Shown: positions 27 to 45,267, counted from the first letter of the stretch. The stretch: 64,000 nt of DNA from an uncultured Planctomycetaceae bacterium (GCA_963813715.1 CAWFAK010000009.1:32001-96000), one strand, 5' to 3'. Notes: generated from the letters alone by a model not told the origin. Numbers and translations are program-made.

Positions 27-249
27 CCATCCTGAGGGCTGCATAAACCGGCACAATCGGCCGGTTCGCACCGACAAAACGGACAAATAGGCAGACTGGG
101 GCCCCAAACGGCTCGCCTCCGCAGTCAGAAAATCCAGGAAGGCACGGAAAATCTGTTATATTTCCTGGGAATGGCTCATCGGCTGGATGCGCCTTTTGGA
201 TCCCCGGCTGATCGATGCCTACAGGACGAGTCGCGAGGGAAACCCGAAC

Positions 250-1881
<1,632 letters not shown>

Positions 1882-7075: not shown

Positions 7076-8055
7076 ATGCAGCCTATGAAGGATCCGGCTA
7101 TGTCCCTATCGACAGAACCTGTCGCGCAGGCCGCGGCGCCTGCGCCTCCCGTTGATCGCACGATGGAGGCCGTGGTGGCCGAACTGCGCGAGCTGCGGAA
7201 CGCGTCGCTCGCCGCGCGGCGTCGCTCTTCGAACCCGCTCAAGCTGCCGTCGCGCAAGTCGCTCAACGCGATCGTCGAGGGGCTGAGCACGGTGCTCTTT
7301 CCCAATCGGCTCGGCTCGCGGCAGCTAGCCCACGAAAGCATCGACTATTACGTCGGCCACACTCTCGACGATTCGTGCCGCGACCTCGTCGAACAGGTCG
7401 CGCTCGAGCTGCAGTTTGTCGGTGAACAGACCGACCCGCGCTGGCGGCCGCAAGGCGGAGGAGCTGGTCCGCGATTTCGCCCGCGGTCTGCCGCAAATTC
7501 GCCGATTGCTCGAGGCCGACATTCTGGCCGCTTACGAGGGGGACCCGGCCGCGCGAAGCATCGACGAAGTGCTGGCCTGCTACCCGGGTATCACGGCCAT
7601 CATCCACTACCGGCTGGCGCACTGCGCTACACGAGTTGGGGCTTCCGCTGATCGCGCGGATGATTGCCGAAATCGCCCACTCGGCAACGGGGATCGACAT
7701 CCATCCGGGCGCGCAGATCGGCAGTAGCTTTTTCATCGATCACGGTACGGGCGTCGTCATCGGCGAGACGGCCGTCCTGGGCGAGCGGGTGCGGCTCTAT
7801 CACGGCGTGACGCTCGGCGCCAAACGCTTCACCGTCGATGAGAGCGGCGTCCTGGTCAAAGGCACGGCCCGGCATCCGATCGTCGAAGACGACGTGGTGA
7901 TCTACGCCGGCGCCACGATCCTCGGCCGCGTGACAATCGGCCGCGGCTCAATCATCGGCGGCAACGTCTGGCTCACGCACAGCATCCCGCCAGGCAGCCA
8001 AATCTCGCAAGCCGCGCTGCGTGTCGAAGTCTTCGACGACGGCTCGGGGATCTGA
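7076..8055 (+). CDS. cysE: Serine O-acetyltransferase (EpsC/CysE type); frameshifts near 7440 and 7625
   Basis: [70 protein letters not shown]. Confidence 0.92.
7915..8055 (+). repeat. 141-bp direct repeat, copy 1 (3' end of cysE)
   Basis: 128/141 identical, ungapped, to 12243-12383 by manual alignment. Confidence 0.95.
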
Positions 8056-8087
8056 AGACCGGACGACACTGCCCTGAACGCGAGCAA

Positions 8088-11000: not shown

Positions 11001-11702
11001 CAGCTCGAAACGGCGGGCGATCCCCATCGCACTGGCCACGCGGGCCGACTCGCACTGAACCCAATCGGGAACCAAGCCGGCGCTCGCGCGAATGGCTCTG
11101 AGCCGTAACAGACCGATGATTGTCATGAACGCGCACAGCCCCGCGCCCGCGCACCAGAGAGCGAGCAGCCAAAACGCAGATGGCCGCCAGGCAACCCCTG
11201 CCGGTTTGTCGTCCGAAAAAGCCGGCTGCTTTTCCGGCATCGCATCGACTGCGCACGGGGCGGCGAGTGTCCGATCAGCGTGTGCAGTTCGAGGACGAGC
11301 GAGGCGGGGTGTCCCGTCGGCGCCGTCGGGATCGGTCAATTGCTCCGCCTCGGTCGCAGTCGCGTCAGATGCCGCCGGAATGCGGCGGTTCGGGTCGCGG
11401 AGTTCCGCGCGGTCCTCCAGCGACGTCGCAGGATTGGCGGCGTCGCCGGCCGCCAACTCAGGCGTCGGTCCCGGCAGAATCGCCAGACGCACAAAGGGCG
11501 GAGAGATCGCCAAGACGCAAAGCAGCACAATCGCGCTTCCCGTAACGCGCCACACAAGCACGCGCCAGCGCGGATTGAGGCGTCCGAGCGCCGCCTGAAC
11601 GAGCCACGCAGCCGCCAATAGCAGCGTGATCTTGGCGAGCAACATGGGAATCGCCCCCAATTCCGCCGGAACCACAACGAGCCGAGCGAAGTGTGCGTTC
11701 AT
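8088..11702 (-). CDS. BlaR1/MecR1-type M56 peptidase with long extracytoplasmic region and C-terminal thioredoxin-like domain; several frameshifts
   Basis: N-terminal TM helices, ILAHELAHLK, LWFHPLAW; C-terminal KRVLIVFGANWCSEC and IPHLAVLDASGK...LKAFLAEWSPK* (stop 8088-8090); overlaps the blaI-like gene. Confidence 0.78.
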
Positions 11703-12103
11703 CTCGTTCTCCTCGTCCGCGGACGCGTTCGGGCGGGCGGGGATTCCTCTTCCTCCGCCAGCCGCTTGAGCCGCAACAGTTCCGCCTCGGACAGCCGCTC
11801 GGACTTGATGAGGGCCATCAAGAGCGCTTGCGGCGAGCCCTCGCAGTAGCTGTTGATGATTTCCTTGAGCGTGCGGAGAAAGGCCGATTCGCGCTTGGTT
11901 TTGGCCTTGTAGAAGTAGGCCTTGCCGACCTGCCGCCGCGTGACATGCCCTTTTTCGACGAGAATCGAAAGGTAGGACCGCAGCGCGGCGTTCTTGATCG
12001 GCCGGGGAAAGCGGCGTTGAATCTCCGCGGGCTTGAGCTCGCCGTGTTCCCAGAGAATCCGGATCACATCGAGCTCGCCGGTCGTCAACGGAATTGTCGG
12101 CAT
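11699..12103 (-). CDS. BlaI/MecI/CopY family repressor
   Basis: LTTGELDVIRILWEHG, LSILVEKGHVTR, YFY, LSEAELLRLK; GGAGG RBS before ATG at 12103. Confidence 0.92.
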   Translation of the reverse strand: MPTIPLTTGELDVIRILWEHGELKPAEIQRRFPRPIKNAALRSYLSILVEKGHVTRRQVGKAYFYKAKTKRESAFLRTLKEIINSYCEGSPQALLMALIKSERLSEAELLRLKRLAEEEESPPARTRPRTRRTR

Positions 12104-12125
12104 GCGAACCTCCCTAAGGACGACA

Positions 12126-12182
12126 TGCAGGCTAATCTGCACATTGGTGGCAGTCAAGTGATGTGCAGAGCATTCTGCACAT
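12126..12182 (-). promoter_or_regulatory. Sigma-70 promoter of blaI with two palindromic operators
   Basis: TTGACT(12157-12152)-N17-TAGCCT(12134-12129); TGCAG-N6-CTGCA at 12126-12141 and 12164-12179. Confidence 0.7.
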
Positions 12183-14704: not shown

Positions 14705-17029
14705 CTACGGCCGAGCCCAGACGACGCTGCCTTGCTTCTTGTACCACACGACTGGGTTGCCCGGGTCGCGTTCCCAGGTCTTGCCGTCGATCACGAATTT
14801 GTATTCGTGCCGGCCCTCGGGGAGCTCGAGCGTCGTCGTGTACCAGCCGTCGCGGTCTGGGCCCTGCATCAGGTGCGAGTCGGGCTTCCAGTGATTGAAT
14901 GAGCCGGAAAGCGCGACCGTCTTGCAGGCAGCGGCCGGGTGATAGCGAAACTCGGCGCGGTACTTGCCGTCGCTCGTCTGTGTGACGGTCGGCGGATGAA
15001 GCGGGCCGACCACGACCACGCCGTTGCGATAGACGTTCGTCCGGTCCCGGTTGCCGGGATCGGTCTTCCAGACTTTGCCGTCGATCACGAATTTGTATTC
15101 GTGCCGCCCGATCGGCAACCGCAGCGTCGACATGAAATAGCCTTCCTTGTCGGGGCCCAACATCGCGAGCGCCGTCGGCTTCCACTCGTTGAAGGTGCCG
15201 GCGAGATAGACGGCTTTGGCGGGCTGCGGCGGACGATAGCGGAAGGCCACGTCGTAGCGGCCGTCGTCGGCCCGCGTCACTCGCGGCGGACCAATTGCAA
15301 AATCCTGCTCGGCCGGGCTGTAGTCGTACGAGCCGATCATCATCTCGTCCCAGGTCTGGTCGCCCCAGTGGACCTCGCTCGTCGGGTCGGGATTCAGCAA
15401 ATTGTTCTCGGAGTTGTCGAAGGCGGCGTGGCAGTCGATCCGCGTGCCCGCTGGCAGAACCTTGGGCTCGGCCAGGCGATAGGTGTTCTGCCAGTTGAAG
15501 TCGTAGCGCGGAACGTCGAGCAGAATCTCTTTGCGACCGTCGGGATATGCGGCGGTGAACGAAAACGCTTTGCCGCGGAGGTGCATGTGCGGCACGAGTT
15601 CGTAGAGGAAACGGTCTTCTTCGATCTGTTCTTGCGCGTCGACGCGATAATCGGCCGCGCCCGGCGGGATGGAAAACTGCCAGTTGTAGATGCCGCCGAC
15701 GGAAACTTCGTGCCGCACGGTCTGCGGGTCGGCAAACAGCAGCCCCGCCTCGCTCAGGTCGGTCTGCTCGCTGCCGTTGGGCGTGTAGTGCATTTGAAAG
15801 ACGAGCCGCGAGCCGGCCGGAATTCGCCCCGCGTAGCCGAGGGTCGGGGCTGTCGGCGGCAGTCCGGGGGCGAACGCGGCGACCGCGTTGAAGAGCGCGT
15901 CTTCCGGCTTCGGCCCCGCTTGTTCGGGCGGCACGTAGAAGAGCAGCATGTGATGGACGATGCTGCGATTGCCCGGCCGCGCTTCGGCACCGCGAATCCA
16001 CATGTCGTGCGTGAATCCCGGGTCGACGATGAAATACTTGTAGTCGACGACGCCGCTCGCCGGCACCATGAACGGCTCGGGCATTTTGACGATTAAATCG
16101 GGCTTGGGGATGCGCCAGCCGTCGGGAAAGGCGGCTTTGGCCGGCAACTGCGACGCGTCGCCCTCCGGCACGCCGTTGTCGATCCAATCGCGGATCAGCT
16201 GCTTGTCTTTTTCAGCGAGGCGGGCGTCGTTCAAGAATTTGCCGTGGGCGGGGTTCGCGCGCCACGGCGGCATCCGTCCCTGGTCGACCACTTCGCGGAT
16301 CGTCTCGGCCCAGGCGGCGGCGTCCGCGTACGAGGTCAACGCAAACGGAGCCACTTCTCCCGCCCGATGACACTCGACGCAGTTGGCCCGAAAGATCCGC
16401 GCGATCTGATTCGAGTACGTGACGTCCCCTTTCGGCGGGAGGCGATTCACGCGAGCGATGCGACAGCCGACCGACGGCGTCGAAGGCGTCCGCACTTGTC
16501 GCCCGGCGAGAATGTCGGCGAGTGCGTCTTCGACGAACGCCTTCTTGGCTTTGTCATGCGCGTAGCCGATGCCGAACTGGTCGTCGATCAGCCCGCAATA
16601 GCGGACGACGCCGGCGGAGTCGATCACGAAGGCCTCGGGCGTGCGAAGCGCGCCGAGCCGATCGGCGACCTGGTTGCCTGGATCCTTGCAGACCGGAAAC
16701 GGAATCTTATGCAGCTGCACGAAGTGCGAAATCGCGGCCAGCGAATCCTGTTGGTTGGCGTCGATGCCGAAGAACCGCACGCCCTGCCCGTGATATTTTT
16801 GTGAAAGCTCGGCCAGGCGGGTGGTGTAGCGTTGGGCGAGCGGGCACTCGGTCCCCAAAAAGACGACGACGTTGGCCCGGCTCTGCTTCCAGCCGGCAAC
16901 CGCATCGGCCCCCAGACAATCGGTTAACGCCGCCGGTTCGATCCGTTTACCCACCGGGCTCGGCGACGCATCCGTGCCGGCCGTTAACAGCAGGCCGACC
17001 AGGAGCGACGAGCAAGCGAATCCAGACAT
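14705..17029 (-). CDS. Secreted redoxin + c-type heme + type II copper monooxygenase-like protein with two C-terminal CBM48/AMPK-like domains
   Basis: Signal peptide, GTECP, RTPEAFVID, CVECH, MPPW, IVHHM, PHMHLRG, YDFNWQ, DEMM; duplicated LAG(T/S)FN.WKP...GRHEYKFVIDGK.W..DPGN. Confidence 0.82.
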   Translation of the reverse strand: MSGFACSSLLVGLLLTAGTDASPSPVGKRIEPAALTDCLGADAVAGWKQSRANVVVFLGTECPLAQRYTTRLAELSQKYHGQGVRFFGIDANQQDSLAAISHFVQLHKIPFPVCKDPGNQVADRLGALRTPEAFVIDSAGVVRYCGLIDDQFGIGYAHDKAKKAFVEDALADILAGRQVRTPSTPSVGCRIARVNRLPPKGDVTYSNQIARIFRANCVECHRAGEVAPFALTSYADAAAWAETIREVVDQGRMPPWRANPAHGKFLNDARLAEKDKQLIRDWIDNGVPEGDASQLPAKAAFPDGWRIPKPDLIVKMPEPFMVPASGVVDYKYFIVDPGFTHDMWIRGAEARPGNRSIVHHMLLFYVPPEQAGPKPEDALFNAVAAFAPGLPPTAPTLGYAGRIPAGSRLVFQMHYTPNGSEQTDLSEAGLLFADPQTVRHEVSVGGIYNWQFSIPPGAADYRVDAQEQIEEDRFLYELVPHMHLRGKAFSFTAAYPDGRKEILLDVPRYDFNWQNTYRLAEPKVLPAGTRIDCHAAFDNSENNLLNPDPTSEVHWGDQTWDEMMIGSYDYSPAEQDFAIGPPRVTRADDGRYDVAFRYRPPQPAKAVYLAGTFNEWKPTALAMLGPDKEGYFMSTLRLPIGRHEYKFVIDGKVWKTDPGNRDRTNVYRNGVVVVGPLHPPTVTQTSDGKYRAEFRYHPAAACKTVALSGSFNHWKPDSHLMQGPDRDGWYTTTLELPEGRHEYKFVIDGKTWERDPGNPVVWYKKQGSVVWARP

Positions 17030-17257
17030 CGGCAGACTCCCTCGTTCCCTCACGCAGCATTTGATTCTGTGATAGCGCTTCTGCAGGGTGAGATTCTAAA
17101 GCGATCCCGGTCGAAGGACCAAGAGCAGGAGGGACCGGCTTTGATCGGCTAGGTGGCTGGGTCGAGCTGAAGGCTCGCCCCGGGCGGCGATGACGCCGAC
17201 CCCATCCCTGACATTTTGCGGTGAGCCGGAGTAGTTCCCATTGCCCCGCGCGGCGGC

Positions 17258-17860
17258 TCAGGCGGCGCACTTCGGGGCGCTGTCCGTGGTCGCACTCGGC
17301 GACGAAGTGCTGGGGGCCGTGCGAGTGTTCCAGGGCATCTTGGCGAGCATCATGCCCATGCCGCAGGTGTCGGTCACGCCGGCGAAGACCAGACCGGCTC
17401 CGATGAAGGCCGACAGTCCGTACAGATAGGGATGGACGAGCGAACCGAGCGCGACGCCGACGAGTACCAGCGAACCGGCGGTGATCCGCACTTGCCGCTC
17501 GAGCGACATCACTTTCTTGCCGCGAACGAGGGGCAGCCCGGCTGTTTCACAAGCCGCCGTTCCGCCTTCGATGTTGATCACGTTGGCAAAGCCGGCTTTG
17601 GCAAATCGGTCGCACGCCTGCTGGCCGCGGCCGCCGGCCTGACAAATCACGTAGAGCGGCTCGTTGGCCGAGCCGTTCCGGGTCCGCACGACCTGCGCGG
17701 GGTCGAGGTCGGAGAGCGGGATGTTCCGCGCGAACTCCACGTGAACTTGCTGAAACTCGGCCGGTGTCCGCACGTCAATCAGGTCGATGCCTTGTCCCGA
17801 GCGGTGGAGCTGGGCCAGCGCCTGGGGAGAAATTGTTCCGAGAGAAGTTGACGCAGCCAT
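17258..17860 (-). CDS. Rhodanese + DUF2892 membrane sulfurtransferase (YgaP-like)
   Basis: LIDVRTPAEF, active loop ICQAGGRG, SLERQVRITAG, AGVTDTCGMGMMLAKMPWN. Confidence 0.92.
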   Translation of the reverse strand: MAASTSLGTISPQALAQLHRSGQGIDLIDVRTPAEFQQVHVEFARNIPLSDLDPAQVVRTRNGSANEPLYVICQAGGRGQQACDRFAKAGFANVINIEGGTAACETAGLPLVRGKKVMSLERQVRITAGSLVLVGVALGSLVHPYLYGLSAFIGAGLVFAGVTDTCGMGMMLAKMPWNTRTAPSTSSPSATTDSAPKCAA

Positions 17861-17873
17861 CGTGCTCGCTCCT

Positions 17874-19682
17874 TCACCTGCGTTGGATCCGGCGGATTGC
17901 GTCCGCCAACCGGTCGATTTCGTCTTTCTTATTATAGAAAGCCAGGGAGGGACGAACTGTAGCCTCAAGTCCAAAACGCCTCAAGGAGGGTTGTGAGCAG
18001 TGGTGGCCGGCCCGCACGGCGATCCCCTCCAGGTCGAGGAGCCGTCCCACTTCGATCGTGGGGCGATCCTGAAGCACGAAGGACAGCACGCCGACCTTTT
18101 CCCGGGCCGTGCCGATCAGCCGCAGGCCGTTGATCCGCGACAGGGCCTCCGTTGCGTAAGCCAACAGCTCGTGCTCGTACTGGGCGATATTGGGCAGGCC
18201 GAATTGGCGGACGTAATCGAGCGCGGCCCCCAAGCCGACGGCGTCGGCGATGTTGGGCGTGCCCGCCTCGAACTTGGCCGGCGGATCGGCATAGGTGGTG
18301 TCTTCGAAGGTGACGTTCTTGATCATGCTGCCGCCCCCCTGCCAGGGAGGCATGATGTCGAGCAGCTCTTCGCGGGCCTGCAGCACGCCGATGCCTGTTG
18401 GGCCGAAAATCTTGTGGCCCGAGAAAACGTAGAAATCGGAGCCCAGCTGCTGCACGTTCACCGGCACGTGGGCGACCGTTTGCGCCCCGTCGATCAGCAC
18501 GCGGGCCCCGTACCGCTTGGCCATCTGCGTCATCTCGGCGATGGGCAAGAGCGTGCCGATGCTGTTGGAGGCGTGGGCCAACGCGACCAGCTTGGTCCGC
18601 GGCCCGAGAATCTTCTGGTACTCCTCGAGAATGATTTCGCCCCGATCGTTGACGGGAATCACCCGCAGGCGAGCGCCGGTCTCTTTCAAGATCAGCTGCC
18701 AGGGGACGATGTTGGCGTGATGTTCGAGCGTCGAGAGGACGATTTCGTCGTCCGGCTGCAGGAACTTGCGGCCCCACGTTTGGGCCACCAGGTTGATCGC
18801 TTCGGTCGTGCCGCGGACGAAGACAATTTCTTTGGACGACGACGCGCCCAAGAAGTCGCGGACCTTGTCGCGAGCCTGCTCGAAGCCTTCGGTCGCCCGT
18901 CCGGCCAGCGTGTGCGCGCCGCGGTGGATGTTGGAATTGTCGTGCTCGTAAAAGTACGAGAGCGCGTCGATCACGCTTTGGGGCTTCTGCGTGGTGGCCG
19001 CGTTGTCGAGCCAGACGAGCGGCCGGCCGTGCACGCGCTGGTGCAGAATCGGGAAGTCGCGACGGACCGCGTCGACGTCGAGCGGCCGCGCGCCGTAGCC
19101 GTTGGCCGCGTCGTCGCGCGGGTAAGGGGCCGGCTCGAACGTCGGGAACTGCGGCGCGGCCGGACGCGAGTTGCCCGGAGCGTGGTTGGTTGTCGCCGAG
19201 GCGGCCGTCGGAGCCGAAGTCGATTTGGGCTCGCCGTTGGGAAACGCCTCGGTCGACGAGCGAAAGTCGGAGCGACGAATGCTCTGGACGAACGCGCGCA
19301 GTCCATCCGTTTGCGATCCGCTGCTTGATGTCGCGGGGAAACCGGACGGACTCGGTGATGACCCCGCGCCGAACGACGGCGCGTGCCCGCCGAATTGGCT
19401 GCCAAATTCCGTCGGCCCGCGGAACGCCTCGACCGGAGCTGCCGAGGCGACGGGAGCCATGGCCGGAGCCTGGCTCTGAAAGATCGGACTGTCGAACGCC
19501 GGCAAAGTTTCCGGAGGCAGCGGCGTTGCCGGCGCTTGCACTTGCTCTCGCGCCATCGAATCGGCGGCCGGATCGACGGGAGGCAGCGGTCCGCCGCCCA
19601 GGCCCGCTCCGTGGCCCCCCGGACTCTCGCTATACAGTCGGCTCGCCAACTGGGCGATGTGATCGGGTGTGAGACTGGTCAT
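17874..19682 (-). CDS. Encapsulin cargo cysteine desulfurase (SufS-like, class II) with disordered N-terminal loading domain
   Basis: WLDNAATTQKP, SNIHRGAH, EHHANIVPWQ, SGHK (PLP Lys), RAGHHCSQP; ~200-aa Pro/Ala/Ser-rich extension. Start 19682 (GGAG RBS) or 19712. Confidence 0.93.
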   Translation of the reverse strand: MTSLTPDHIAQLASRLYSESPGGHGAGLGGGPLPPVDPAADSMAREQVQAPATPLPPETLPAFDSPIFQSQAPAMAPVASAAPVEAFRGPTEFGSQFGGHAPSFGAGSSPSPSGFPATSSSGSQTDGLRAFVQSIRRSDFRSSTEAFPNGEPKSTSAPTAASATTNHAPGNSRPAAPQFPTFEPAPYPRDDAANGYGARPLDVDAVRRDFPILHQRVHGRPLVWLDNAATTQKPQSVIDALSYFYEHDNSNIHRGAHTLAGRATEGFEQARDKVRDFLGASSSKEIVFVRGTTEAINLVAQTWGRKFLQPDDEIVLSTLEHHANIVPWQLILKETGARLRVIPVNDRGEIILEEYQKILGPRTKLVALAHASNSIGTLLPIAEMTQMAKRYGARVLIDGAQTVAHVPVNVQQLGSDFYVFSGHKIFGPTGIGVLQAREELLDIMPPWQGGGSMIKNVTFEDTTYADPPAKFEAGTPNIADAVGLGAALDYVRQFGLPNIAQYEHELLAYATEALSRINGLRLIGTAREKVGVLSFVLQDRPTIEVGRLLDLEGIAVRAGHHCSQPSLRRFGLEATVRPSLAFYNKKDEIDRLADAIRRIQRR

Positions 19683-19721
19683 CGTCGACGCTCCGCTGGC
19701 CGCTGATTTCAAAGCCGCTCA

Positions 19722-19775
19722 TTCGAACGGGGGCTTATTTTTCGAGCAGGGCTTCTTTCGAACTGGGGCTTATTT
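19722..19775 (-). repeat. Short imperfect triple tandem repeat between shell 2 and the desulfurase
   Basis: AAATAAGCCCCAGTTCGAA / AGAAGCCCTGCTCGAA / AAATAAGCCCCCGTTCGAA. Confidence 0.6.
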
Positions 19776-21209
19776 GAATTTCGTCATGCGATGCTCGTAG
19801 TCGTGGTAGTAGCCCACCTCGACGTTTTCGAGGATGCCCAGCGCGTCGTCGGTCAACACGGCGCACGAGAAGTAGAGTGTGAGCAGGTACGAGGCGACGC
19901 CCAGGCTGTCCAAGCCCATCAACCGGGCCGACAGGCTCGGCTTGATCTCGCCCGGAATGCCCGCTTGGTGCAGGCCGACGACTCCCTGGTCTCCCTCGCC
20001 GATCCGCAGCAGCAAGATGTTGGTCGTGCCGAACCACTGGTTCGACTGGTTGCGGCTGTAGACCTCGAGCTTGTCGCAGGGCACCAACGGCACGCCGCGC
20101 CACGTGATCACCGACGTACCGAACAGGTTGATCGTCACCGGCGGCACGCCGCGCCACGTGCACTCCCGCTCGAACGCGGCGATCGCCTTCGGATGGGCGA
20201 GGAAGAACGCCGGCTTCTTCCAGACGAGGGCCAGCAAATCGTCGAGATCGTCGGGCGTCGGCGCTCCGTAACGCGTGCTGATCCGCATGGCCGGGTCGGC
20301 CGAGTGCAACAGGCCGAACTTCTTGCTGTTGACGATCTCCCACTCTTGGCGTTCCTTGATCCCCTCGATCGTCAGCCGCATCTGCTCTTCAAGCTGATCG
20401 TAGGGGCCGTTGTAGAGATCGGACACGCGCGTATGCACGCGGACCACCGTCTGCACGGCGGAGAGTGAATATTCCCGCGGGTTGGCCGAGTAATCGACGA
20501 AGGTCTCGGGGATCTCGACGTTCTCGGCAAAGCCTGACACGAGGTCGATGTTGCGTTCGCCGTACCGATTGACGGTCGAGCGCAGCTCTTGGTGTTCCTC
20601 GATCGCCTTTCTGAAATCGTCCTGCAGGTTGGGCTCTTCGGCCAGCACGGCGTCGAGGTCTTTGCGGGACAGGGTGAGCAGCACGCATGGCGTGTTCGTG
20701 CGAACGGTGACGTCCGACGGCTTGTCGGAGACGAGATCGGTCTCGCCGAAGAACTCGCCTTCGCTCAAGAGGGCGATCCGCAGGTCGGACCCGTGAATGC
20801 CCTTGCTGAGCACCTCGACCTGCCCCTGGGCGATGATGAAGAACTTGCTCAGATCCTCGCCTTCGACGAGGAGCTTGTTGCCCAGCGACACGTCTTCCGT
20901 CTTAAAGCGGCTGGCCATTCGCGTGATGATGGCCTCGGGCAGCTTGGAGAAGAGGGGCACGCTTCGCAGCGATTCGGACGGGAACGAGGCCGTCTCACCC
21001 GACGCATCCACGCCAATCCGCTCTGCCTTGGGCAGCTCGACCTTCGTGCGATTGACGCGGTACACGCCGCCGTGCACGTGCACCCACGGCAGCAGGCTCA
21101 AGAGCCAGCGCGGGGTGATCGACATCATCTTGGGCGACGTTTTGGTCGTATCCGCCAGGTTCCTGGCGACCGACGTCGTCACACTACGCTGCAACAGACC
21201 GTTCGACAT
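19770..21209 (-). CDS. Family 2B encapsulin shell protein with cNMP-binding-domain insertion, copy 2
   Basis: ARNLADTTKT..ITPRWLL.LLPWV..GG.YRVNR, cNMP domain (VPLFS, GEFFGE), PREYSLS, HTRVSDLYN, PTPDDLDDLL, WRGVPL.PCDK, SYLLTLYFS. Confidence 0.92.
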   Translation of the reverse strand: MSNGLLQRSVTTSVARNLADTTKTSPKMMSITPRWLLSLLPWVHVHGGVYRVNRTKVELPKAERIGVDASGETASFPSESLRSVPLFSKLPEAIITRMASRFKTEDVSLGNKLLVEGEDLSKFFIIAQGQVEVLSKGIHGSDLRIALLSEGEFFGETDLVSDKPSDVTVRTNTPCVLLTLSRKDLDAVLAEEPNLQDDFRKAIEEHQELRSTVNRYGERNIDLVSGFAENVEIPETFVDYSANPREYSLSAVQTVVRVHTRVSDLYNGPYDQLEEQMRLTIEGIKERQEWEIVNSKKFGLLHSADPAMRISTRYGAPTPDDLDDLLALVWKKPAFFLAHPKAIAAFERECTWRGVPPVTINLFGTSVITWRGVPLVPCDKLEVYSRNQSNQWFGTTNILLLRIGEGDQGVVGLHQAGIPGEIKPSLSARLMGLDSLGVASYLLTLYFSCAVLTDDALGILENVEVGYYHDYEHRMTKFK

Positions 21210-21340
21210 GGCCTCTCCTCAACCTTTTTCCGTTCGGTTATTCCGTTCCGTGATTTCAGTCGTCCGCTAATTCACTCGTCCGCTAACCGCCGTGCAAATC
21301 CCCACCGCCCCCAACAGAAAACTCAAACCAATCGCTTCAC

Positions 21341-22798
21341 TTAGATCCCCAGCCCGTCCGCGAATCGTCGGGGCTCGCGACTTTCGTAATCGTGGTAGTA
21401 GCTGACCTCGACGTTTTCCAGAATTCCCAGCGCGTCGTCGGTCAACACGGCGCACGAGAAGTAGAGCGTGAGCAGGTACGAGGCGACTCCCAGGCTGTCC
21501 AAGCCCATCAACCGGGCCGACAGGCTCGGCTTGATCTCGCCCGGGATGCCCACCTCGTGCAGCCCGACGACTCCCTGGTCGCCCTCGCCGATCCGCAGCA
21601 GGATAATGCTCGTGGTGCCGAACCATTGGCGAGCCTGGTTGCGGCCCTGGATTTCCAGCTTGTCGCAAGGGATCAGCGGCACGCCCCGCCATGTGATCAC
21701 CGACGTACCGAACAGGTTGATCGTCACCGGCGGCACGCCCCGCCACGTGCACTCGCGCTCGAACGCGGCGATCGCCTTCGGATGGGCCAGGAAGAAGGCC
21801 GGCTTTTTCCAGACGAGGGCCAGTAGGTCATCGAGATCGTCGGGCGTGGGCGAACCGTAACGCGTGCTGATTCGCATGGCCGGGTCGGCCGAGTGCAAGA
21901 GGCCGAACTTCTTGCTGTTGACGATCTCCCACTCCTGCCGTTCCTTGATCCCCTCGATCGTGAGGCGCATCTGCTCTTCGAGCTGATCGTAGGGACCGTT
22001 GTAGAGATCCGAGACGCGCGTGTGGACCCGCACGACCGTCTGCACGGCGGAGAGCGAGTATTCCCTCGGGTTGGCCGAGTAGTCGACGAACGTCTCTGGA
22101 ATCACGACGTTCTCGGCAAAGCCCGAAACGAGGTCGATGTTGCGTTCGCCGTAGCGATTGACGGTCGAGCGCAGTTCAAGGTGGTCCTCGATCGCCTTCT
22201 TGAATTCGTCCTGCAGGTTGGGCGTTTCGGCGAGGACAGCTTCGAGGTCTTTCCGCGAAAGCGTCAGCACGACACAGGGCGTGTTCGTGCGGACGGTGAC
22301 GTCGGACGGCTTGTCGGAAACGAGGTCGGTCTCGCCGAAGTATTCGCCTTCGCTCAACAGGGCGATCCGCAGGTCGCTGCCGTGCACGCCTTTGCTCAGC
22401 ACTTCGACCTGCCCCTGGGCAATGACGAAGAACTTGCTGATGTCTTCGCCTTCAACCAATAGCTTGTTGCCCATCGACACGTTTTCGGTCTTGAAGCGGC
22501 TGGCCATCCGCGCGATGACCGCTTCGGGCAGCTTGGAGAAGAGAGGCACGCTCCGCAGCGCCTCGGGGGCGAAGGAGGCCGTCTCGCCCGACACGTCGAC
22601 GCCGATCCGCTCCGCCTTGGGCAGCTCGACCTTCGTGCGGTTGACGCGATAGGTTCCGCCGTGCACGTGCACCCAGGGCAGCAGGCTCAACAGCCACCGC
22701 GGGGTGATTGACATCATCTTGGGTGACGTCTTGGTCGTGTCGGCCAGGTTCCTGGCGACCGACGTCGTCACGCTGCGCTGCAACAGACCGTTCGACAT
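21341..22798 (-). CDS. Family 2B encapsulin shell protein with cNMP-binding-domain insertion, copy 1
   Basis: Same motifs as 19770-21209; about 90% aa identity by eye, with a different C-terminal tail. Confidence 0.92.
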   Translation of the reverse strand: MSNGLLQRSVTTSVARNLADTTKTSPKMMSITPRWLLSLLPWVHVHGGTYRVNRTKVELPKAERIGVDVSGETASFAPEALRSVPLFSKLPEAVIARMASRFKTENVSMGNKLLVEGEDISKFFVIAQGQVEVLSKGVHGSDLRIALLSEGEYFGETDLVSDKPSDVTVRTNTPCVVLTLSRKDLEAVLAETPNLQDEFKKAIEDHLELRSTVNRYGERNIDLVSGFAENVVIPETFVDYSANPREYSLSAVQTVVRVHTRVSDLYNGPYDQLEEQMRLTIEGIKERQEWEIVNSKKFGLLHSADPAMRISTRYGSPTPDDLDDLLALVWKKPAFFLAHPKAIAAFERECTWRGVPPVTINLFGTSVITWRGVPLIPCDKLEIQGRNQARQWFGTTSIILLRIGEGDQGVVGLHEVGIPGEIKPSLSARLMGLDSLGVASYLLTLYFSCAVLTDDALGILENVEVSYYHDYESREPRRFADGLGI

Positions 22799-23366
22799 GG
22801 TGGGAATCTTTTTCTTGTTGCCCGCTTATCGGTGTTTGAGAAATCCCAGGTTGGTTGCTGACGACAGCCGTCGAGCCCGCGAGGAATCGGCGCGAGCCCA
22901 CGGACTCGGCAGACTGCGGTTGAAGCGGCGTGGCGCGAACCGCGCGTCGAATGACGACCCGAGCGTCGGCTCGGCGATCAGCAGTTGGGGCTGCAAACGG
23001 GCATCCATTTCCGCGGCCCAAATCAGGGTCGTGCCACAAGGGCACGGGCACGAGTTCAGACCCGTGCCGCTCGGGCACGAGGCGCTTCCCGGCGCGGGCC
23101 TCTGCTTTGTTCCGCTTGGCGTGCGAAACGCGTGCAGCAGCGCGCGGCCGGCCGACTCCAGGTTCTCTGCGAAGACCGACAGGAATGTCTTCTCCCAAAT
23201 CACCAGTCGTTCCCGCTTGCCGCGTCGCGCATGCGCGAAGTGTCGAAGCCAGTGGTTGACGAGAAGACAAAGTCTGCCAGGGCTGCGAGGATACCCCGTT
23301 TGACCCAAACACGCATCGAATAGAGCCCCCATTGAGACAAGATTTCGAGAATTTCCGGCCTCACGC

Positions 23367-23421
23367 TTAAATATTCTCGATCAAATGAGTGATATATTAG
23401 AGCGAAGCGAGGGTGTGTCAA
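23367..23421 (-). promoter_or_regulatory. Candidate promoter and operator of the encapsulin operon
   Basis: TTGACA-N16-TAATAT on the minus strand, overlapping the 31-bp box (23367-23397) shared with 6494-6524. Confidence 0.5.
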
Positions 23422-23631
23422 GCAGTAAAGCTGGGAGGGCGGGAATATTGGGCGATGGATGGAAGTTCTCAGCGAAGGGCGCGGACGGGTGGCCCGGGGT
23501 GCTCCGCATCGCGCGGAAGCCACCGTCTCGCTCATCGATTCGCCCAACAATCCGGATCTTCCGGGGCTTCCGCTGCACGGCCACCCTGACACTTAGCGGC
23601 ATACCCACCCCTGCAAACCACGCGGCTGCCG

Positions 23632-24348
23632 TCACTCGTTGTCGAGGGCCAGGTCGCGGAGTTGGCTCAGGGCTTCGTCGAGCTCCGGCACCTTAGCGCC
23701 GGGGACGCGGCCGGCCAGGTCGCATTTGGCGAGCAGAATCAGCTCGTCGTAGTCGGCCGATTGTTGCAGCCGGCGGCGGGCGCGCACGCCGATCCGACCG
23801 TCGAGCAGATCGAGGGCCAGCGAGTGCTGTTCGATCAGCCAGGCCGTGCGCTCGGAGATTGCATCGCCGAGTGCCCTCAGGCCGGCCGTCACGTGCTCGT
23901 GCGGATCGATGCCTTTTCCCACGTCGTGCAAGAGGGCGGCCAGGCGGAATTCCTCGTCGTAGGGCAGCAGGTCAGAAGCCAGCGTGAAAACCTGCAGGCT
24001 GTGATAGAGCACGTCCCCCTCGGGGTGCCGCCTGTGGTCCTGCTCGATCTTGGCCAAAGGCGCCAACAAGTTGCGATAAATGCGAAAGCGGTCCGTGCTT
24101 TCGGACAGTGGCCGCTCGGGATCGTCCCGCTGGTCGGCCAAGAGCGCGGGGCAGGCGTAACCGTTTGAGAGCCGCTCGAGCTCTTCGCGAATCTCGCGAT
24201 TGGTCGGTAGTTCGGAGGGCCGCAGCCTTTGGCGACAGAGCGTGCGGGCCGCCCGCTGCCTGGCCCGGCCGTATTCCTGCTCCTGCCGCTGATGCATCAG
24301 GCGAGCGGCCTCGAACAGAATCAGTTGGCGCAGCTTGTCGGCGGACAT
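23632..24348 (-). CDS. HD-domain phosphohydrolase (resembles the HD domain of CCA-adding enzymes)
   Basis: HPEGDVLYHSLQV, AALLHDVGK, D..GR. Confidence 0.85.
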   Translation of the reverse strand: MSADKLRQLILFEAARLMHQRQEQEYGRARQRAARTLCRQRLRPSELPTNREIREELERLSNGYACPALLADQRDDPERPLSESTDRFRIYRNLLAPLAKIEQDHRRHPEGDVLYHSLQVFTLASDLLPYDEEFRLAALLHDVGKGIDPHEHVTAGLRALGDAISERTAWLIEQHSLALDLLDGRIGVRARRRLQQSADYDELILLAKCDLAGRVPGAKVPELDEALSQLRDLALDNE

Positions 24349-27886: not shown

Positions 27887-27968
27887 CGGACGAATCGCCA
27901 AGAGACTAAAACTGCCAGAACCGGCGGGCTTACACCCGCCGCTCGCCTTGGCATATCATCGGCCAATC

Positions 27969-30900
27969 ATGTTTGAAAAAGTCACCAGTTCCGAATTCGT
28001 CCGTGGCGAGCATCACGTGCTCCGCTTCTGGCGGGAGCGCGCGATCTTCCAGCAGCTCCGCGCGAAAAATGCCGGCAAGCCGCGGTGGAGCTTCATCGAC
28101 GGGCCGATCACCGCCAACAACCCGATGGGCGTGCACCACGCCTGGGGACGCACCTACAAAGACGTCTTCCAGCGCTACTTCGCGATGACCGGGCACGACG
28201 AGCGCTACCAGAACGGCTTCGACTGCCAGGGGCTGTGGGTCGAAGTCGAGGTCGAGCGCGAGCTCAAGATGGGAGCCAAGGCGGCGATCGAGGCGTACGG
28301 CATCGACAAGTTCGTCAACGCCTGCAAGCAACGCGTGCTGCAGTTCGCGGCCCGGCAAACCGAGCAGTCGATCCGCTTGGGCTATTGGATGGACTGGGAC
28401 GATCCAACCACGCTGCGAAAACTTTCCGAGACCGTCGGCACCGAGCAAACCGTCAGCATCACGACGCCGTCGGGCCAAACAGTGAGCGACAAGGCCGACG
28501 CGATTGTGGCTCGGCTCGGCAACCCGCAGTGGGGCGGCAGCTACTTCACGTTCTCCACCGAGAACAACGAGACGATCTGGGCGTTCCTCAAGAAGTGTTT
28601 CGAGCGGGGCAAGCTCTACAGCGGTCACGACGTGATGCCTTGGTCGGGCCGCGCCGGCAGCGCGTACAGCCAGATGGAAGTCGCGGACGGCCGGCGGCTC
28701 ACCATCCACCGCTCGTGCTTCGTGCGGTTTCCGCTGGCAGACGCGGAGAACGAATACCTGCTCGTCTGGACGACGACTCCCTGGACGCTGACCAGCAACG
28801 TCGCCTGCGCGGTCAATCCCGACCTCGACTACGTGCAGCTCAAAACGAACCGCGACGGCGCCACTTATTACTTCGCCAAGGACAACCTGCACTTTCAGCG
28901 GCTCGAGCGCGAGTTCAAAGAGGGATTCGGTCGACCCGAATGGGGTTGGCCGTCGAACGTGCCCAAGCTCAAAACGATTTCGCAAATCTTCAAGGAGCAG
29001 GGCGGGTTCGAGATCGTCGCCGAAATCAAAGGGGCCGCGCTGGTGGGACGGCCGTATCGCGGACCGTTCGACGATTTGCCCGCGCAAAACGCGAAGGGAG
29101 GCATTCCCGAGGATGCCAATCTCAAGAACCGGACGGCGGCCGAGTCGCACCGCGTGATCGACGGCGGCCGCGATTCTCGCGGCAATCCCAACGTGGTGGC
29201 TGGCGAGGGAACGGGCATCGTCCACATCGCGCCGGGCTGCGGCGACGTCGACTATGTGCTCGGCAAGCAGCAGGGCCTGGTCGGGCTGGCGCCGCTGGAT
29301 GAGGCGGGGCAGTTCGTCGCCGGTTTCGGGCCGTTCGAAGGGCGCGAGGCCAACGATCCGCGAGACGGCCCAGCTCGTTTTCGATTCGCTCAAGGCGAAG
29401 CATCTGCTGGTCAACGTCGAAGAGTATCCGCACATCTATCCGTTCTGCTGGCGGACGGGGGACGAGCTGGTCTTCCGCCTCGTCGACGAGTGGTTCATCA
29501 ACATGGACTGGCGGGACGAGATCAAGGACGTCACGCGGCAGATTCGGTGGCTGCCGCCCAGCATCGACGGCGAAGAGCGCGAGGTCGAGTGGCTCACGAA
29601 CATGCGCGACTGGCTGATCTCCAAGAAGCGATTCTGGGGGCTGGCGCTGCCGATCTGGGTCGACGAGAAAACGGGCGAATTCACCGTCATCGGCTCCCTC
29701 GCCGAGTTGAAAGAGCGGGCCGTCGCAGGCTGGGACGAATTCGCGGGGCACACGCCACACCGGCCCTGGATCGACCGCGTGAAGATCAAGAACCCGAAGA
29801 CGGGCAATCTGATGTCGCGTGTGCCCGACGTCGGCAATCCGTGGCTCGACGCGGGAATCGTTTCGTTCTCGACGCTCGAATACAACACCAACCGCGACAA
29901 CTGGCGGAAGTGGTATCCGGGCGACCTCGTGCTCGAGTGCTTTCCCGGCCAGTTCCGCAACTGGTTCTATTCGATGCTCTCGATGGCGACGATGATGGAC
30001 AATTCGCCGCCGTTCAAAACCCTCTTCGGACATCGCCTGGTGATGAACGAAGACGGGAAGCCGATGCACAAGTCGGACGGGACGGCCATCTGGTTCGAAG
30101 AGGCGGCCGAGCAGCTGGGCGTCGACACCATGCGCTGGATGTACCTGGCGCAGAATCCGGCGTCCGACCTGCGGTTCGGCACGCGGCATCCCAACCATCC
30201 GGTCGTGCTGCAGACACCCGAAGGTCCGATCGAGCAAACTCGCGAAGGCGTGCCGACCTGCGAAGTCGTCAGCAAGCCGGCCGACGAAATCCGCCGGCAG
30301 GTGCTGATCCCGCTGTGGAACACGTACGCGTTCTTCGTCAATTACGCGCGGCTCGACGAATTCGATCCGCACGCGCCGGCTGTGCCCGTTGCCGAGCGGC
30401 CGGAGATCGACCGCTGGATCCTCTCCAACCTGCAGTCGCTGATCGCCGTCGCCAACAAGGGATTTCAAGAGTTCGACACGGCTTCGGTTTGCCGACAGGC
30501 GGCCGAATTCATCGACGACCTGTCGAACTGGTACATCCGCCGCAACCGCCGCCGCTTCTGGCGCTCGCGTGACGCGGGCGATCGCGACAAGCTGGCCGCG
30601 TATCAGACGCTCTATTCCGTGCTGGTCGAGCTGACGAAGCTGCTCGCGCCGATGATTCCGTTCCTCACCGAGCGGATGTACGCGAACCTCGTGAAGAGCT
30701 GGCGGCCCGACGCGCCGGAGAGCGTGCACCTGTGCGACTATCCGCAGCCGGACCAGAAACTGCTCGACCCGGAGCTCAACACGCGGATGGCCGCCGCCCA
30801 GCGGCTCGTGCGTCTGGGTCACAAGCTGCGCGACGACGCGAATCTCCGCGTGCGGCAACCACTGGCCGAGTGCCGCTTCGCCTGCGCGACGCAGCAGTCG

Positions 30901-31533
30901 CCGACTCGATCGAGCGACTGGCCGACGTCGTCGAGGACGAGCTCAACGTCAAGCAGCTCACCCGTTGCGACCACCTCGACGGCCTGGTGAGCTATACTTA
31001 CAAGCCGAACCTCAAAACGCTCGGGCCGAAATACGGCAAGCTGCTCGGCGCAGATCGGCAAGGCGCTCGACCGCGCTCGCCCGCGAGCGAGTTCGATCCG
31101 CTCCGCCGGGGACGAATCGATGCACGATTGCCGGTCGGCGGAACCGAGGTCGCTACTCGCTCCGACCGGACGTGCTGGTCTCGACGCAGCAATCGGCCGG
31201 CTGGGTGACGGCCGAAGACCGCGGCCTGCAGATCGCGCTCTCGACCGAACTGACGCCCGAACTCGTCCGCGAAGGAATGGCTCGCGACTTCGTCCGGCAG
31301 GTGCAGCAGCTGCGCAAGGATGCCGATCTCGAGATCGAGGACCGCATCCGCATTTGCTCATCCAGGCCGACGATTCCGATGTGAAGCAGTCCCTCGCCGA
31401 GTACCGCGAGTACATCGCGAGCGAGACGCAGGCCGATGCGATCGAGTCGTCGGCAAGCGTTCCCGACGGCGTCAAGGCCGTCTCGATCGGCAACGCCAAG
31501 GTCTTCATCTGGATCGCCAAGGTGTCGAAGTGA
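27969..31533 (+). CDS. ileS: Isoleucine--tRNA ligase (type 2-like); frameshifts near 29360, 30890, 31050-31160 and 31355
   Basis: [92 protein letters not shown]. Confidence 0.93.

Positions 31534-40842: not shown

Positions 40843-45267
<4,425 letters not shown>

Follow-up and report, generated by a model that had tools for sequence, protein, structure and literature searches.

A planctomycete two-shell Family 2B desulfurase encapsulin operon, with a shell protein tail that may dock CysK

Four genes at 17258-22798 of the window (the whole stretch of DNA analysed, 64,000 nucleotides from an uncultured Planctomycetaceae bacterium) almost certainly form a Family 2B desulfurase encapsulin operon, as judged from sequence matches and a structure model. 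The operon type itself is already known, both among Family 2B desulfurase operons and among two-component operons. New here, and absent from the earlier note on this DNA, are a dimorphism between the C-terminal tails of the two shell proteins and a link to CysK (O-acetylserine sulfhydrylase). Sequence and analogy give about an even chance that the upstream shell protein, Enc-up, docks CysK at the five-fold vertices via its C-terminal tail; for the direction of the CysK/O-acetylserine regulation that might follow, which is drawn by analogy, our confidence is much lower. The Enc-up tail thus offers a possible way in which the compartment is connected to cysteine metabolism. The features concerned are the following.

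23394..23421, minus strand: sigma-70-like promoter candidate (TTGACA-16-TAATAT), ~595 nt before the first Enc-up codon and upstream of the cysK relic
22952..23316, minus strand: decayed cysK relic directly upstream of Enc-up, found by tblastn with the cysK of a related locus (L041)
21341..22798, minus strand: Enc-up, a 485-aa Family 2B encapsulin shell protein made of an N-arm, a cNMP-binding-like domain, an HK97-fold domain and a long C-terminal tail
22184..22564, minus strand: Enc-up residues ~79-205, the cNMP-binding-like domain, which lacks the cassette arginine
21344..21382, minus strand: C-terminal tail of Enc-up, proposed to dock CysK, residues 473-485, ending R-R-F-A-D-G-L-G-I
19770..21209, minus strand: Enc-down, the other Family 2B shell protein (479 aa), which has a short tail
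19773-19793 (codons), minus strand: C-terminal tail of Enc-down, Lys-rich, ending H-R-M-T-K-F-K
17874..19712, minus strand: SufS-type cysteine desulfurase, 612 aa from a TTG, the conserved Met being residue 11
19089-19712, minus strand: N-terminal domain of the desulfurase, ~208 residues, disordered, putatively cargo-loading
17258..17860, minus strand: YgaP-like membrane rhodanese, 200 aa, with a cytoplasmic rhodanese domain and a two-helix transmembrane hairpin
7076..8055 (approximate), plus strand: cysE-like serine acetyltransferase gene in three reading frames, ending V-F-D-D-G-S-G-I

The four operon genes are open on one strand with intact frames, in the order shell-shell-desulfurase-rhodanese that the earlier note had read, and are separated by gaps of 131, 57 and 13 nt; the rhodanese ATG lies 14 nt past the desulfurase stop, and the longest rhodanese ORF extends to 17974. 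Short-read contigs from three RNA libraries and an independent DNA run match the genes at no less than 95% identity and show no indel wherever they cover the four coding regions. Contigs from the RNA libraries span the Enc-up/Enc-down junction, which is compatible with co-expression of the two shell genes. The promoter candidate is the sole match within 16900-23700 (0.6 expected), and the contigs of one RNA library end at 23416, a position past which the DNA run continues: a weak hint at this promoter. That the host is a planctomycete, as first read, agrees with the nearest related locus, which has a 99% identical shell and belongs to an uncultured Planctomycetaceae MAG, and with the PSCyt/PSD1/DUF1501 genes held by the window.

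Membership of Family 2B rests on several matches, and with those of the cargo and rhodanese genes described below they uphold the initial description of the operon. The encapsulin 2B HMM search that had been proposed placed both shells above the cut-off of 400 for NCBIfam NF041163 'family 2B encapsulin shell' (equivalog; Enc-up 596.6 bits, Enc-down 593.8 bits), and these are the only two such matches in the whole genome. Both also match Pfam SrpI-like and cNMP_binding (for Enc-up, PF19307 383.6 bits and PF00027 56.3 bits). With phmmer, Enc-up aligns to the solved shells 9bje, 9bhu, 9bix and 6x8m at E values of 7e-121 to 2.7e-105, the best being 9bje (residues 8-466). Its AF2 model (pLDDT 82.6) is placed by Foldseek at TM 0.89-0.95 to 8t6r, 6x8m and 9bje (0.95 for 6x8m), with E 1.7e-48 for 9bhu. 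An HK97-type shell domain, the absence of which would have counted against the system, is thus predicted by sequence and model alike, and assembly into a closed icosahedral shell may be expected from solved shells that are 45-50% identical. The pore glycine and proline of SrpI are kept as G354 and P356; its pore arginines R192 and R304 correspond to W352 and E472.

A cNMP-binding-like insertion, the feature that separates 2B from 2A shells, is recognised between the N-arm and the HK97 domain in both proteins (PF00027 56.3 bits in Enc-up and 55.8 in Enc-down, cut-off 27.5, residues ~107-191). In alignments to the cyclic-nucleotide-binding domains of PKG and PKA, the arginine of the phosphate-binding cassette is absent (P-S-D-V versus P-R-[ST]-A), and serine occupies its position in 120/120 shells of the clade. 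The one 2B domain whose assay is described in the available part of PMC11550324 did not bind cAMP. A 'ligand-regulated' shell, as had been proposed, is therefore unsupported, since the domain lacks the phosphate-binding arginine.

The adjacent desulfurase scores 551.8 bits against TIGR01979 sufS (cut-off 475.1) and 477.2 bits against PF00266, and its SGHK and GHHC catalytic motifs are present in 69/69 aligned homologues. Against NF041166 'family 2A encapsulin cargo cysteine desulfurase' it remains under the cut-off (766.2 bits, 800 required); the highest-scoring stretch spans residues 111-609, which leaves the first 110 outside the 2A model. These belong to the long, apparently disordered N-terminal region, whose 208 residues are 62% P/G/S/A/T with two partly conserved motifs (residues 15-32 and 136-146), and which is probably a loading domain. 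Encapsulation of a desulfurase and sulfur storage are known only for 2A systems, as far as the consulted portions of PMC8049743 and PMC10836720 go. The rhodanese matches PF00581 (50.0 bits, cut-off 22.2) and PF11127 YgaP-like_TM (38.4 bits, cut-off 25.3); all 19 rows compared have both its active-site Cys73, in a C-x-x-G-x-R loop, and Cys166 of the hairpin, as would be expected of a YgaP-like membrane rhodanese. Transfer of sulfane sulfur from the compartment to this protein may be supposed. A Ser/Thr/Pro-rich C-terminal extension of 23 residues was seen on the rhodanese only here and in one other locus, L036.

The neighbourhood survey covered the 79 nearest related loci, and two shells occur in 53 of them, in several families and in Geobacterales; such pairs are common in Planctomycetota genomes. 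Downstream of the shell genes, 73/79 loci have a desulfurase, the remaining six contigs ending first, and only 23 loci hold a rhodanese. In published catalogues, as far as the sections available to us extend, 199 Family 2B desulfurase operons from 9 phyla were listed in 2021 (PMC8346489) and the desulfurase type is one of five two-component operon types (PMC12407261), so that 'uncharacterised system' overstated the case for the operon type; the literature covered contains no bench study of any of these operons. Two further statements of the earlier note agree with the latter paper in its accessible part: the desulfurase encapsulins studied so far belong to Family 2A, and catalogued two-component 2B operons are mainly (>75%) actinobacterial.

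What sets the two shells apart is their C-terminus. All 46 upstream copies end in F-x-x-G-[L/S]-G-I, 48/49 downstream copies carry a short lysine-rich K-type tail, and 40/41 complete pairs combine the two in this order; as a point against the docking proposed below, 4/25 single or ambiguous shells carry the K-type tail alone. In all, 68 shells end in G-x-G-I (F at -7 in 61), with G482, G484 and I485 invariant in 34 Enc-up rows; the ending was found in 0/150 representatives of other clusters, 2A-like ones included. The dimorphism withstands gene conversion. In L060, both shell genes encode one and the same protein over their first 465 codons (1343-nt identical run, dS 0.006) and yet the tails differ, and other long conversion tracts were found in L082 (766 nt), L069 (752 nt) and L049 (359 nt). 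Judged from these sequences, selection has preserved no difference between the paralogues other than the tail. Residues 473-485 of Enc-up have pLDDT <50 and are predicted to be disordered, so that the C-terminal Ile would be free and its tail flexible, as in CysK-binding proteins. The C-terminus of the 2A shell SrpI is described at the exterior of the five-fold pore (PMC8049743, in part), and SrpI R304 aligns with Enc-up E472; by this structure, which is of Family 2A and not of a shell from the present 2B clade, the tail would point outward.

The same G-x-G-I-COOH ending is found on CysE and on CymR-like Rrf2 proteins beside the encapsulin operons. CysE and CymR are the two classic CysK partners, their C-terminal Ile entering the CysK active site, and complexes of CysK with such Ile-tailed partners are broken by O-acetylserine. 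The ending is rare: it terminates 15 of the 50,396 ORFs of at least 80 aa in this genome, of which four are recognisable (Enc-up, an Rrf2 regulator, the genuine CysE and the window's cysE-like gene), and 94/3616 ORFs in the 79 loci (73 shells, 10 CysE-type, 7 Rrf2 and 4 others). The profiles of shell tails (F-[ED]-[DHN]-G-[LS]-G-I) and CysE tails (F-[ED]-D-G-S-G-I) match position by position. Since residue -3 is Leu in 47/68 shells and Ser in 7/10 CysE, the affinity of shell for CysK could differ from that of CysE; CysK-partner affinity is said to be set by the last three residues (bioRxiv 10.1101/2024.09.19.614015).

cysK is the commonest neighbour, on the same strand and next to the operon in 43/79 loci, with cysK-shell-shell-desulfurase the commonest layout (17 loci); in 36/79, no cysK lies within the retrieved DNA. 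The relatives' intact genes score 441-446 bits against TIGR01139 (cut-off 350.95). In the window, the same place holds the relic, ~75 codons at 34% identity in two frames with the remainder deleted. The single intact cysK of this genome lies on another contig and, as the operon-linked copy is a relic, CysK would here come from that gene. The 'cysE nearby' of the earlier note is only partly right: a cysE-like gene is in the window, on the plus strand and spread over three frames, and its TIGR01172 score (121.6 bits, with a further 27.5 bits for a piece in a different frame) is under the cut-off of 210.65, with Hexapep at 48.4 bits and SATase_N at 19.6. No intact cysE adjoins the shell genes; this sole candidate in the window is 9.2 kb away, with unrelated genes between, and the genome's cysE above the cut-off is on another contig.

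We propose the following scheme, in which co-assembly, cargo loading and sulfur storage are drawn from studied relatives. The two HK97-fold proteins, their cNMP-binding-like domains facing outward, would form a small icosahedral compartment, and the disordered ~200-residue N-terminal domain should load the desulfurase into it. Cysteine would enter, the desulfurase would make alanine and sulfane sulfur, the sulfur would be stored inside, and the rhodanese would help to move it onward. The two paralogues would exist to give the five-fold vertices two kinds of tail: Enc-up, its tail being of the same type as those of the CysE and CymR-like Rrf2 proteins of these loci, would most likely dock CysK on the outside, and Enc-down, with its short Lys-rich tail and without the Ile, could not. 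Their co-assembly would then set the number of CysK docking sites per vertex. When sulfur is sufficient, CysK might be held and blocked on the shell; a rise in O-acetylserine might release it, active beside the sulfur store. Since O-acetylserine breaks such complexes, docking would tie the store to a signal of sulfur status.

A different role for the Enc-up tail, to which we give perhaps half the weight of docking, is structural or gating: it could latch subunits together, or could plug the five-fold pore or set its charge, with the likeness to CysE and CymR coincidental or otherwise convergent and the paralogues tuning only pore charge and stability. The tails would adjoin the pore by homology to SrpI (PMC8049743, in part), both SrpI pore arginines are replaced, and the Enc-down tail has a net charge of +2.4 versus -0.1 for Enc-up tails; moreover, the differences within the two-component shells of Streptomyces lie in interface and luminal motifs, and the part of PMC12407261 covered proposes no outside partner. 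Such a role leaves unexplained why the exact G-x-G-I-COOH with F at -7 is common to CysE and Rrf2 of the same loci and almost nothing else, and why cysK is the commonest neighbour; the tail is, besides, predicted to be disordered rather than packed.

Alternatively, the two proteins might stay apart and form separate shell populations, for instance CysK-decorated and bare, or loaded and empty. [quoted passage not shown] The bridging RNA contigs, no proof in themselves, would fit with joint expression. That the second gene is a redundant tandem duplicate with no role of its own is already disfavoured and very improbable: the proteins are 93% identical (440/474, BLASTP) and, by the motifs in the available part of PMC12407261, both are Enc1-type at motif 1 with an identical motif 2, but dN/dS is 0.096 (dN 0.043) at a dS of 0.45, which indicates that both are kept, the pair persists in 53/79 loci, and the tail dimorphism survives gene conversion.

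Among known systems, the S. lydicus pair Sl-Enc1/Sl-Enc2 (PDB 9BJE, 9BIX; PMC12407261, in part) shares adjacent 2B shell genes, the cNMP-binding-like insertion and the HK97 fold. The window shells, 131 nt apart, lie well within the 10 kb by which Dutcher et al. 2025 define two-component systems; the A-domain motifs that distinguish Enc1 from Enc2 in S. lydicus (TVWK vs RRRK; AVDFHGHSLP vs GAELHGTDVR) do not differ between them, motif 1 being LVWK (Enc1-like) in both. Their kept difference is the C-terminal tail, which the Streptomyces proteins lack: the solved Streptomyces 2B shells stop short of the Enc-up tail region in phmmer alignments. The S. lydicus cargo is also of a type other than desulfurase. 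Identity in related pairs is 74-99% (median 87%), as against roughly 60% for same-operon pairs (Andreas and Giessen, PMC8346489, in part) and about 70% for the HK97 domains of all two-component shell proteins (PMC12407261, in part). The single-component 2B shell of S. griseus, Sg Enc (9BHU; PMC11550324, in part), resembles the window shells in its outside cNMP-like domain without the cassette arginine, and it takes up its cargo through a disordered N-terminal domain, the counterpart of which is putative here; it has Trp where the window shells have Ser, a 2-methylisoborneol synthase (terpene cyclase) as cargo, and no C-terminal tail.

The Family 2A desulfurase encapsulins of S. elongatus (SrpI/CyD, 6X8M; PMC8049743) and A. 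baumannii (8T6R; PMC10836720), as described in the portions available, share a desulfurase whose disordered N-terminal loading domain spans ~225 residues, and sulfur-linked partners (rhodanese, serine acetyltransferase); their HK97 domain is close to ours (E 2.7e-105, TM 0.95), with G354 and P356 of the pore in common. Unlike the window system, they have one shell gene, no cNMP-like domain and no G-x-G-I tail, their rhodanese was worked with in soluble form (crystal structure, PMC11284452) whereas ours is of the membrane type, and cysK is not among the four 2A operon layouts listed in the consulted part of PMC10836720. E. coli YgaP (PMC4730233, in part) likewise joins an N-terminal cytosolic rhodanese to a C-terminal two-helix membrane domain; it has no known encapsulin link, and the window protein adds the 23-residue extension. 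The tailed partners in CysE-CysK (the cysteine synthase complex), CymR-CysK, CdiA-CT(EC536)-CysK and EGL-9-CYSL-1 (PMC5562914, PMC11724271, bioRxiv 10.1101/2024.09.19.614015) share with Enc-up a flexible C-terminal tail ending in Ile, and the GYGI of CdiA-CT is itself a G-x-G-I. Enc-up further resembles them in being encoded, across these loci, beside cysK, cysE and an Rrf2 regulator gene, with the same ending on CysE and Rrf2. Known CysK partners are an enzyme, a regulator and a toxin; the putative docker here would be a 60-subunit capsid-like shell.

The operon described in the earlier note, with two Family 2B encapsulin shells, a desulfurase and a membrane rhodanese, is confirmed by intact same-strand ORFs, family models, matches to solved shells, and desulfurase and YgaP-type rhodanese features. 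Its four ORFs all lie on the minus strand with short gaps between them:

21341-22798, minus strand: Enc-up, the upstream shell, 485 aa, NF041163 at 596.6 bits
19770-21209, minus strand: Enc-down, the downstream shell, 479 aa, NF041163 at 593.8 bits
17874-19712, minus strand: cysteine desulfurase, SufS-like, 612 aa, TIGR01979 at 551.8 bits
17258-17860, minus strand: rhodanese, YgaP-type, 200 aa, ATG 14 nt past the desulfurase stop

NF041163 is the curated model of the Family 2B shell (cut-off 400), and the two shell genes are the only ones above this cut-off in the 7.49-Mb genome, whose completeness is stated as 82.6%. Both carry SrpI-like and cNMP_binding Pfam domains. Enc-up matches solved 2B shells over its whole length (9bje, E 7e-121; also 9bhu and 9bix), and its match to the 2A shells 6x8m and 8t6r is confined to the HK97 domain. 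An AF2 model of Enc-up based on a diverse alignment has a pLDDT of 82.6, and with it Foldseek ranks 2B and 2A shells first (TM 0.89-0.95) and cyclic-nucleotide-binding domains next; an earlier model of the shell, from a shallow alignment of close relatives (pLDDT 40), was discarded. The desulfurase motifs SGHK and GHHC, which we take to be the PLP-lysine and catalytic-cysteine motifs, occur in 69/69 aligned homologues. The N-terminal domain of this protein (208 residues, 62% Pro/Gly/Ser/Ala/Thr, just two motifs partly conserved) is built like the domains by which Family 2A desulfurases are loaded as cargo (PMC8049743, PMC10836720), and the protein reaches 766.2 bits with the 2A cargo model, slightly below the cut-off of 800. 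In the rhodanese, the active-site cysteine is invariant and the membrane domain is a two-helix one of the YgaP type. Homology thus shows a shell, a putatively loadable desulfurase and a membrane sulfurtransferase. An 8-residue loop insertion at residues ~384-392, missing from every solved Family 2 shell, was rejected as a special trait: several further cluster representatives share it, and it fails to tell the paralogues apart.

As a genuine member of a catalogued type, the operon is ordinary. The catalogue of Andreas and Giessen lists 199 desulfurase operons of Family 2B, spread over 9 phyla (PMC8346489), and planctomycete rows, of whichever encapsulin family, occur in their supplement. Dutcher et al. 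describe five types of two-component operons, the desulfurase type being the rarest and Actinobacteria holding >75% of the systems; they speak of 'five phyla', and their main text and legends do not contain the word Planctomycetota (PMC12407261). Bench work on a 2B desulfurase system did not turn up in our literature search. In an even sample of the phylum, full-length 2B shells were present in 3 of 401 genomes and in none of the 20 from the same family. A targeted scan of species genomes yielded 566 related stretches, and locus counts rest on the best 79 loci among them, 76-99% identical to Enc-up and assigned by title to Planctomycetota (74), Geobacterales (4) and Chitinophagaceae (1). Two shells are found in 53 of these loci and one in 22, while 4 are too short to tell; the desulfurase is present in 73, the remaining 6 contigs stopping before its position, and the rhodanese in 23, immediately downstream in 12. 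Cultured carriers of the operon are Schlesneria sp. T3-172, Planctomicrobium sp. SH664 and Pirellulaceae SH501; loci L053, L082 and L108 come from cultured carriers.

Regulation by a ligand, which the earlier note had also proposed, is unsupported. Where true cyclic-nucleotide binders carry P-R-[ST]-A the window shells have P-S-D-V, and the cassette arginine is replaced by Ser in 120/120 clade shells. The sole 2B cNMP-like domain reported as tested at the bench did not bind cAMP, and the arginine is described as missing from nearly all such 2B domains (PMC11550324). Some other 2B clusters, represented by P0004, P0006, P0011, P0012, P0084 and P0109, keep the canonical P-R-x-A cassette (alignment A4), and because of this retention might be able to bind cyclic nucleotides.

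Enc-up and Enc-down share 88.5% nucleotide identity; 112 codons differ in synonymous ways only and 34 non-synonymously (dS 0.45, dN/dS 0.096). Judged from their sequences, they are not a fresh duplicate. They do not follow the Enc1/Enc2 split published by Dutcher et al., since both carry diagnostic motif 1 in its Enc1-like form and do not differ at motif 2. A tree of 120 shells often pairs the two copies of a genome as sisters, upstream with downstream, and within-pair identity ranges from 73.6 to 98.7% (median 87.3%, 41 pairs). Codon-by-codon comparison covered 28 pairs, 11 further pairs being left out for indels. In the L060 pair (L060:8001-10931), the first 465 codons encode the same protein, with an identical run of 1343 nt and a dS of 0.006; identical runs reach 766 nt in L082, 752 nt in L069 and 359 nt in L049. 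Recent gene conversion between the tandem shells is clear in these four pairs, and the converted tracts end before the 3' parts that encode the differing tails. The downstream copy is the closer to the clade consensus in 38/41 pairs, which are not mutually independent.

One difference outlasts gene conversion, that of the C-terminal tail. All upstream copies (46/46) end in G-x-G-I, and 48/49 downstream copies in a short Lys-rich tail, the exception lying at a contig end; this order holds in 40/41 complete pairs, and single shells are of the G-x-G-I type in 21/25 cases. Such an end is found in only 15 of the 50,396 stop-to-stop ORFs of at least 80 aa in the whole genome. The recognisable genes among them are Enc-up, the true CysE, a cysE-like gene of the window and an Rrf2 regulator; the remaining 11 resemble shadow frames rich in arginine. 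Among 3616 ORFs of the 79 related loci, 94 share this ending: 73 shells, 10 CysE-type, 7 Rrf2 and 4 others (a fragment of an ABC ATPase, one shadow frame and two ORFs with no Pfam match). Shell, CysE and Rrf2 tails agree position by position:

C-terminal tail profiles of the three protein types
Shells (n=68): F at -7 in 61, [E/D] at -6, [D/H/N] at -5, G-[L/S]-G-I
CysE (n=10): F-[E/D]-D-G-S-G-I
Rrf2 (n=7): F-[V/I]-G-G-[E/D]-G-I

CysK has two classic binders, CysE and the Rrf2 regulator CymR, which insert a C-terminal peptide into its active site; the C-terminal Ile of these tails is described as critical and conserved in all cases, and O-acetylserine as disrupting the complex (PMC5562914, PMC11724271, bioRxiv 10.1101/2024.09.19.614015). 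The commonest neighbour of the operon is cysK itself (43/79 loci; TIGR01139 at 441-446 bits, cut-off 350.95), usually on the strand of the first shell and 18-400 nt upstream of it, or right after the desulfurase, and cysK-shell-shell-desulfurase is the commonest layout (17 loci). Also found beside the operon are genes for sulfate ABC transporters (12-14 loci), cysE (12) and the Rrf2 regulator (7), with sigma-54 activators flanking it in just 9. An ORF cluster of 42 loci without Pfam matches was discarded, since it proved to be cysK read in antisense. The 833-nt 'intergenic' stretch of the window ahead of Enc-up contains a decayed cysK relic. The features concerned are:

22952-23316, minus strand: cysK relic in two frames, ~75 codons left (34% identity), remainder deleted
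~7076-8055, plus strand: cysE-like gene in three frames, ending in …F-D-D-G-S-G-I
G000:C9:21363-22076 (L119:464-1177), ~10 kb before the window: CymR-like Rrf2 regulator, PF02082 at 119 bits, ending in …F-V-G-G-E-G-I

L036, the nearest relative, shares the cysK relic, and weaker traces of it occur in L037 and L039; at greater distance, relatives carry an intact cysK at that position. The one intact cysK of this genome is on another contig. The cysE that the earlier note placed nearby exists as a cysE-like gene, but it lies 9.2 kb off on the other strand and scores under the TIGR01172 cut-off; the genome's true CysE (TIGR01172 at 240.9 bits, SATase_N and Hexapep domains) also has a G-x-G-I end. 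In the closest relatives (L037, L039, L040, L041 and L042) an Rrf2 homologue directly follows the rhodanese or desulfurase, and in this genome the regulator has been separated from the operon. What is new here is a CysE-like tail conserved on one of two shells, kept against gene conversion, in a cysK-cysE-Rrf2 context. Two further observations touch on such tails. The two Pfam-less ORFs, beside related operons at L052:1457-2389 (…D-F-G-F-G-I) and L064:4750-5394 (…F-V-G-M-G-I), are possible further CysK partners, or chance. P0021, a 469-aa representative of another 2B cluster, ends in …H-Y-S-N-I, a different tail type with a free C-terminal Ile, which may make it a second, independent case of a shell with a CysK-type tail.

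Signals around the operon are few. A 60-nt block at 23261-23320 (minus strand), just ahead of the cysK relic, is 79-90% identical in L037, L039, L041 and L042, and may be an operon leader or operator. The sole sigma-70-like promoter match (23394-23421, minus strand) lies ~75 nt upstream of this block; the contigs of one RNA library stop at 23416, and a DNA run goes further. The sigma-54 pattern TGGCACG-N4-TTGCW, with at most 2 mismatches, occurs 6 times in the window against 10.4 expected, never upstream of the operon. Rfam gave a single chance-level match on 16900-23800, and a terminator scan 0 hits against 6.0 expected. Three RNA libraries have contigs over the operon; as neighbouring genes are covered as well and RNA libraries can contain DNA, this indicates presence only, and gaps in the coverage carry no weight.

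Many genes are broken into two or three frames at 3361-6124, 7076-9035, 27948-30990, 42291-45285, 50712-52150 and 53135-56118 (PSCyt2/PSD1, cysE-like, thioredoxin-like, class I tRNA synthetase, 2-oxoglutarate dehydrogenase E1, sigma-54 activator, SNF2 helicase), with Pfam profile positions running on from one ORF to the next. Compared with the window, a short-read DNA run has one extra base at each of 17158, 23232 and 23366, and many of these breaks may therefore be indel errors of a long-read assembly, not pseudogenes. Directly downstream of the operon, at 14705-17053 (minus strand), a 782-aa gene combines redoxin/AhpC-TSA, cytochrome c and two CBM48/AMPK-type modules; conserved in L036 only, it occupies the place of the Rrf2 and sulfate-binding genes of relatives, and an RNA-library contig bridges it and the rhodanese gene. 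A BlaR1-type M56 peptidase and BlaI-type repressor pair (9558-12157, minus strand) lies between the cysE-like gene and the operon. A sigma-54 activator at 187-1881 (plus strand), 21 kb from the operon, is 56% identical to the one just upstream of it in L057 and 8 other loci; it sits beside DUF1501 and PSCyt/PSD1 genes, as the operon itself does in some relatives.

By extension from 2A systems, cysteine would enter the shell and its sulfur be stored inside. Enc-up would dock CysK via its C-terminal tail, a step for which we see the case as evenly balanced. A complex prediction of CysK (alignment A6) with Enc-up 436-485 (A5), run with no controls, gave a score of 0.02 against a mark of 0.32 and speaks neither for nor against binding. 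The Enc-up tail is predicted to be disordered in the AF2 model. Because the extended C-terminus of SrpI makes a raised vertex beside the five-fold pore (PMC8049743) and SrpI R304 aligns to E472, one residue ahead of the annotated tail segment 473-485, the tails would project outward round this pore, within reach of a 70-kDa CysK dimer. Five tails per vertex could not all be occupied; a co-assembled tail-less paralogue would thin the docking sites, and selection would therefore keep two genes that differ only at their end. A far less similar pair, from S. lydicus, does co-assemble (PMC12407261). Bound to such a tail, CysK is inhibited until O-acetylserine releases it; the shell would thus hold CysK when sulfur suffices and, with rising O-acetylserine, let it go next to the store. 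Docking may also cap the pore. The joint reading, which we rate a little below an even chance, is that the upstream shell mimics CysE, that the tail-less paralogue dilutes docking sites to a sterically workable number, and that shell, CysE and CymR-like regulator compete for one CysK pool, O-acetylserine and sulfide settling which of them holds it.

Desulfurase encapsulins are widespread sulfur stores, and the questions at stake are how stored sulfur relates to cell sulfur status and remobilisation, what the acetyltransferase and rhodanese do, and why many 2B operons have two shell genes. A CysK-docking tail would answer the last and give a handle on the other two, tying the compartment to the O-acetylserine/sulfide-sensing cysteine synthase switch, of which the encapsulin would be a third regulatory arm; it would also be the first functional reason for two-component shells. 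If the tail idea is wrong, an ordinary catalogued operon type remains. Our literature search found no proposal of encapsulin docking to CysK or cysteine synthase; a paper on the A. baumannii encapsulin rhodanese mentions cysteine synthase in general only and calls the acetyltransferase role unknown. With such a tail, a capsid-like shell would join the 'moonlighting' partners of CysK, where the CDI toxin CdiA-CT of E. coli 536 is described as using the same trick, with a GYGI tail (PMC5562914, PMC11724271, bioRxiv 10.1101/2024.09.19.614015).
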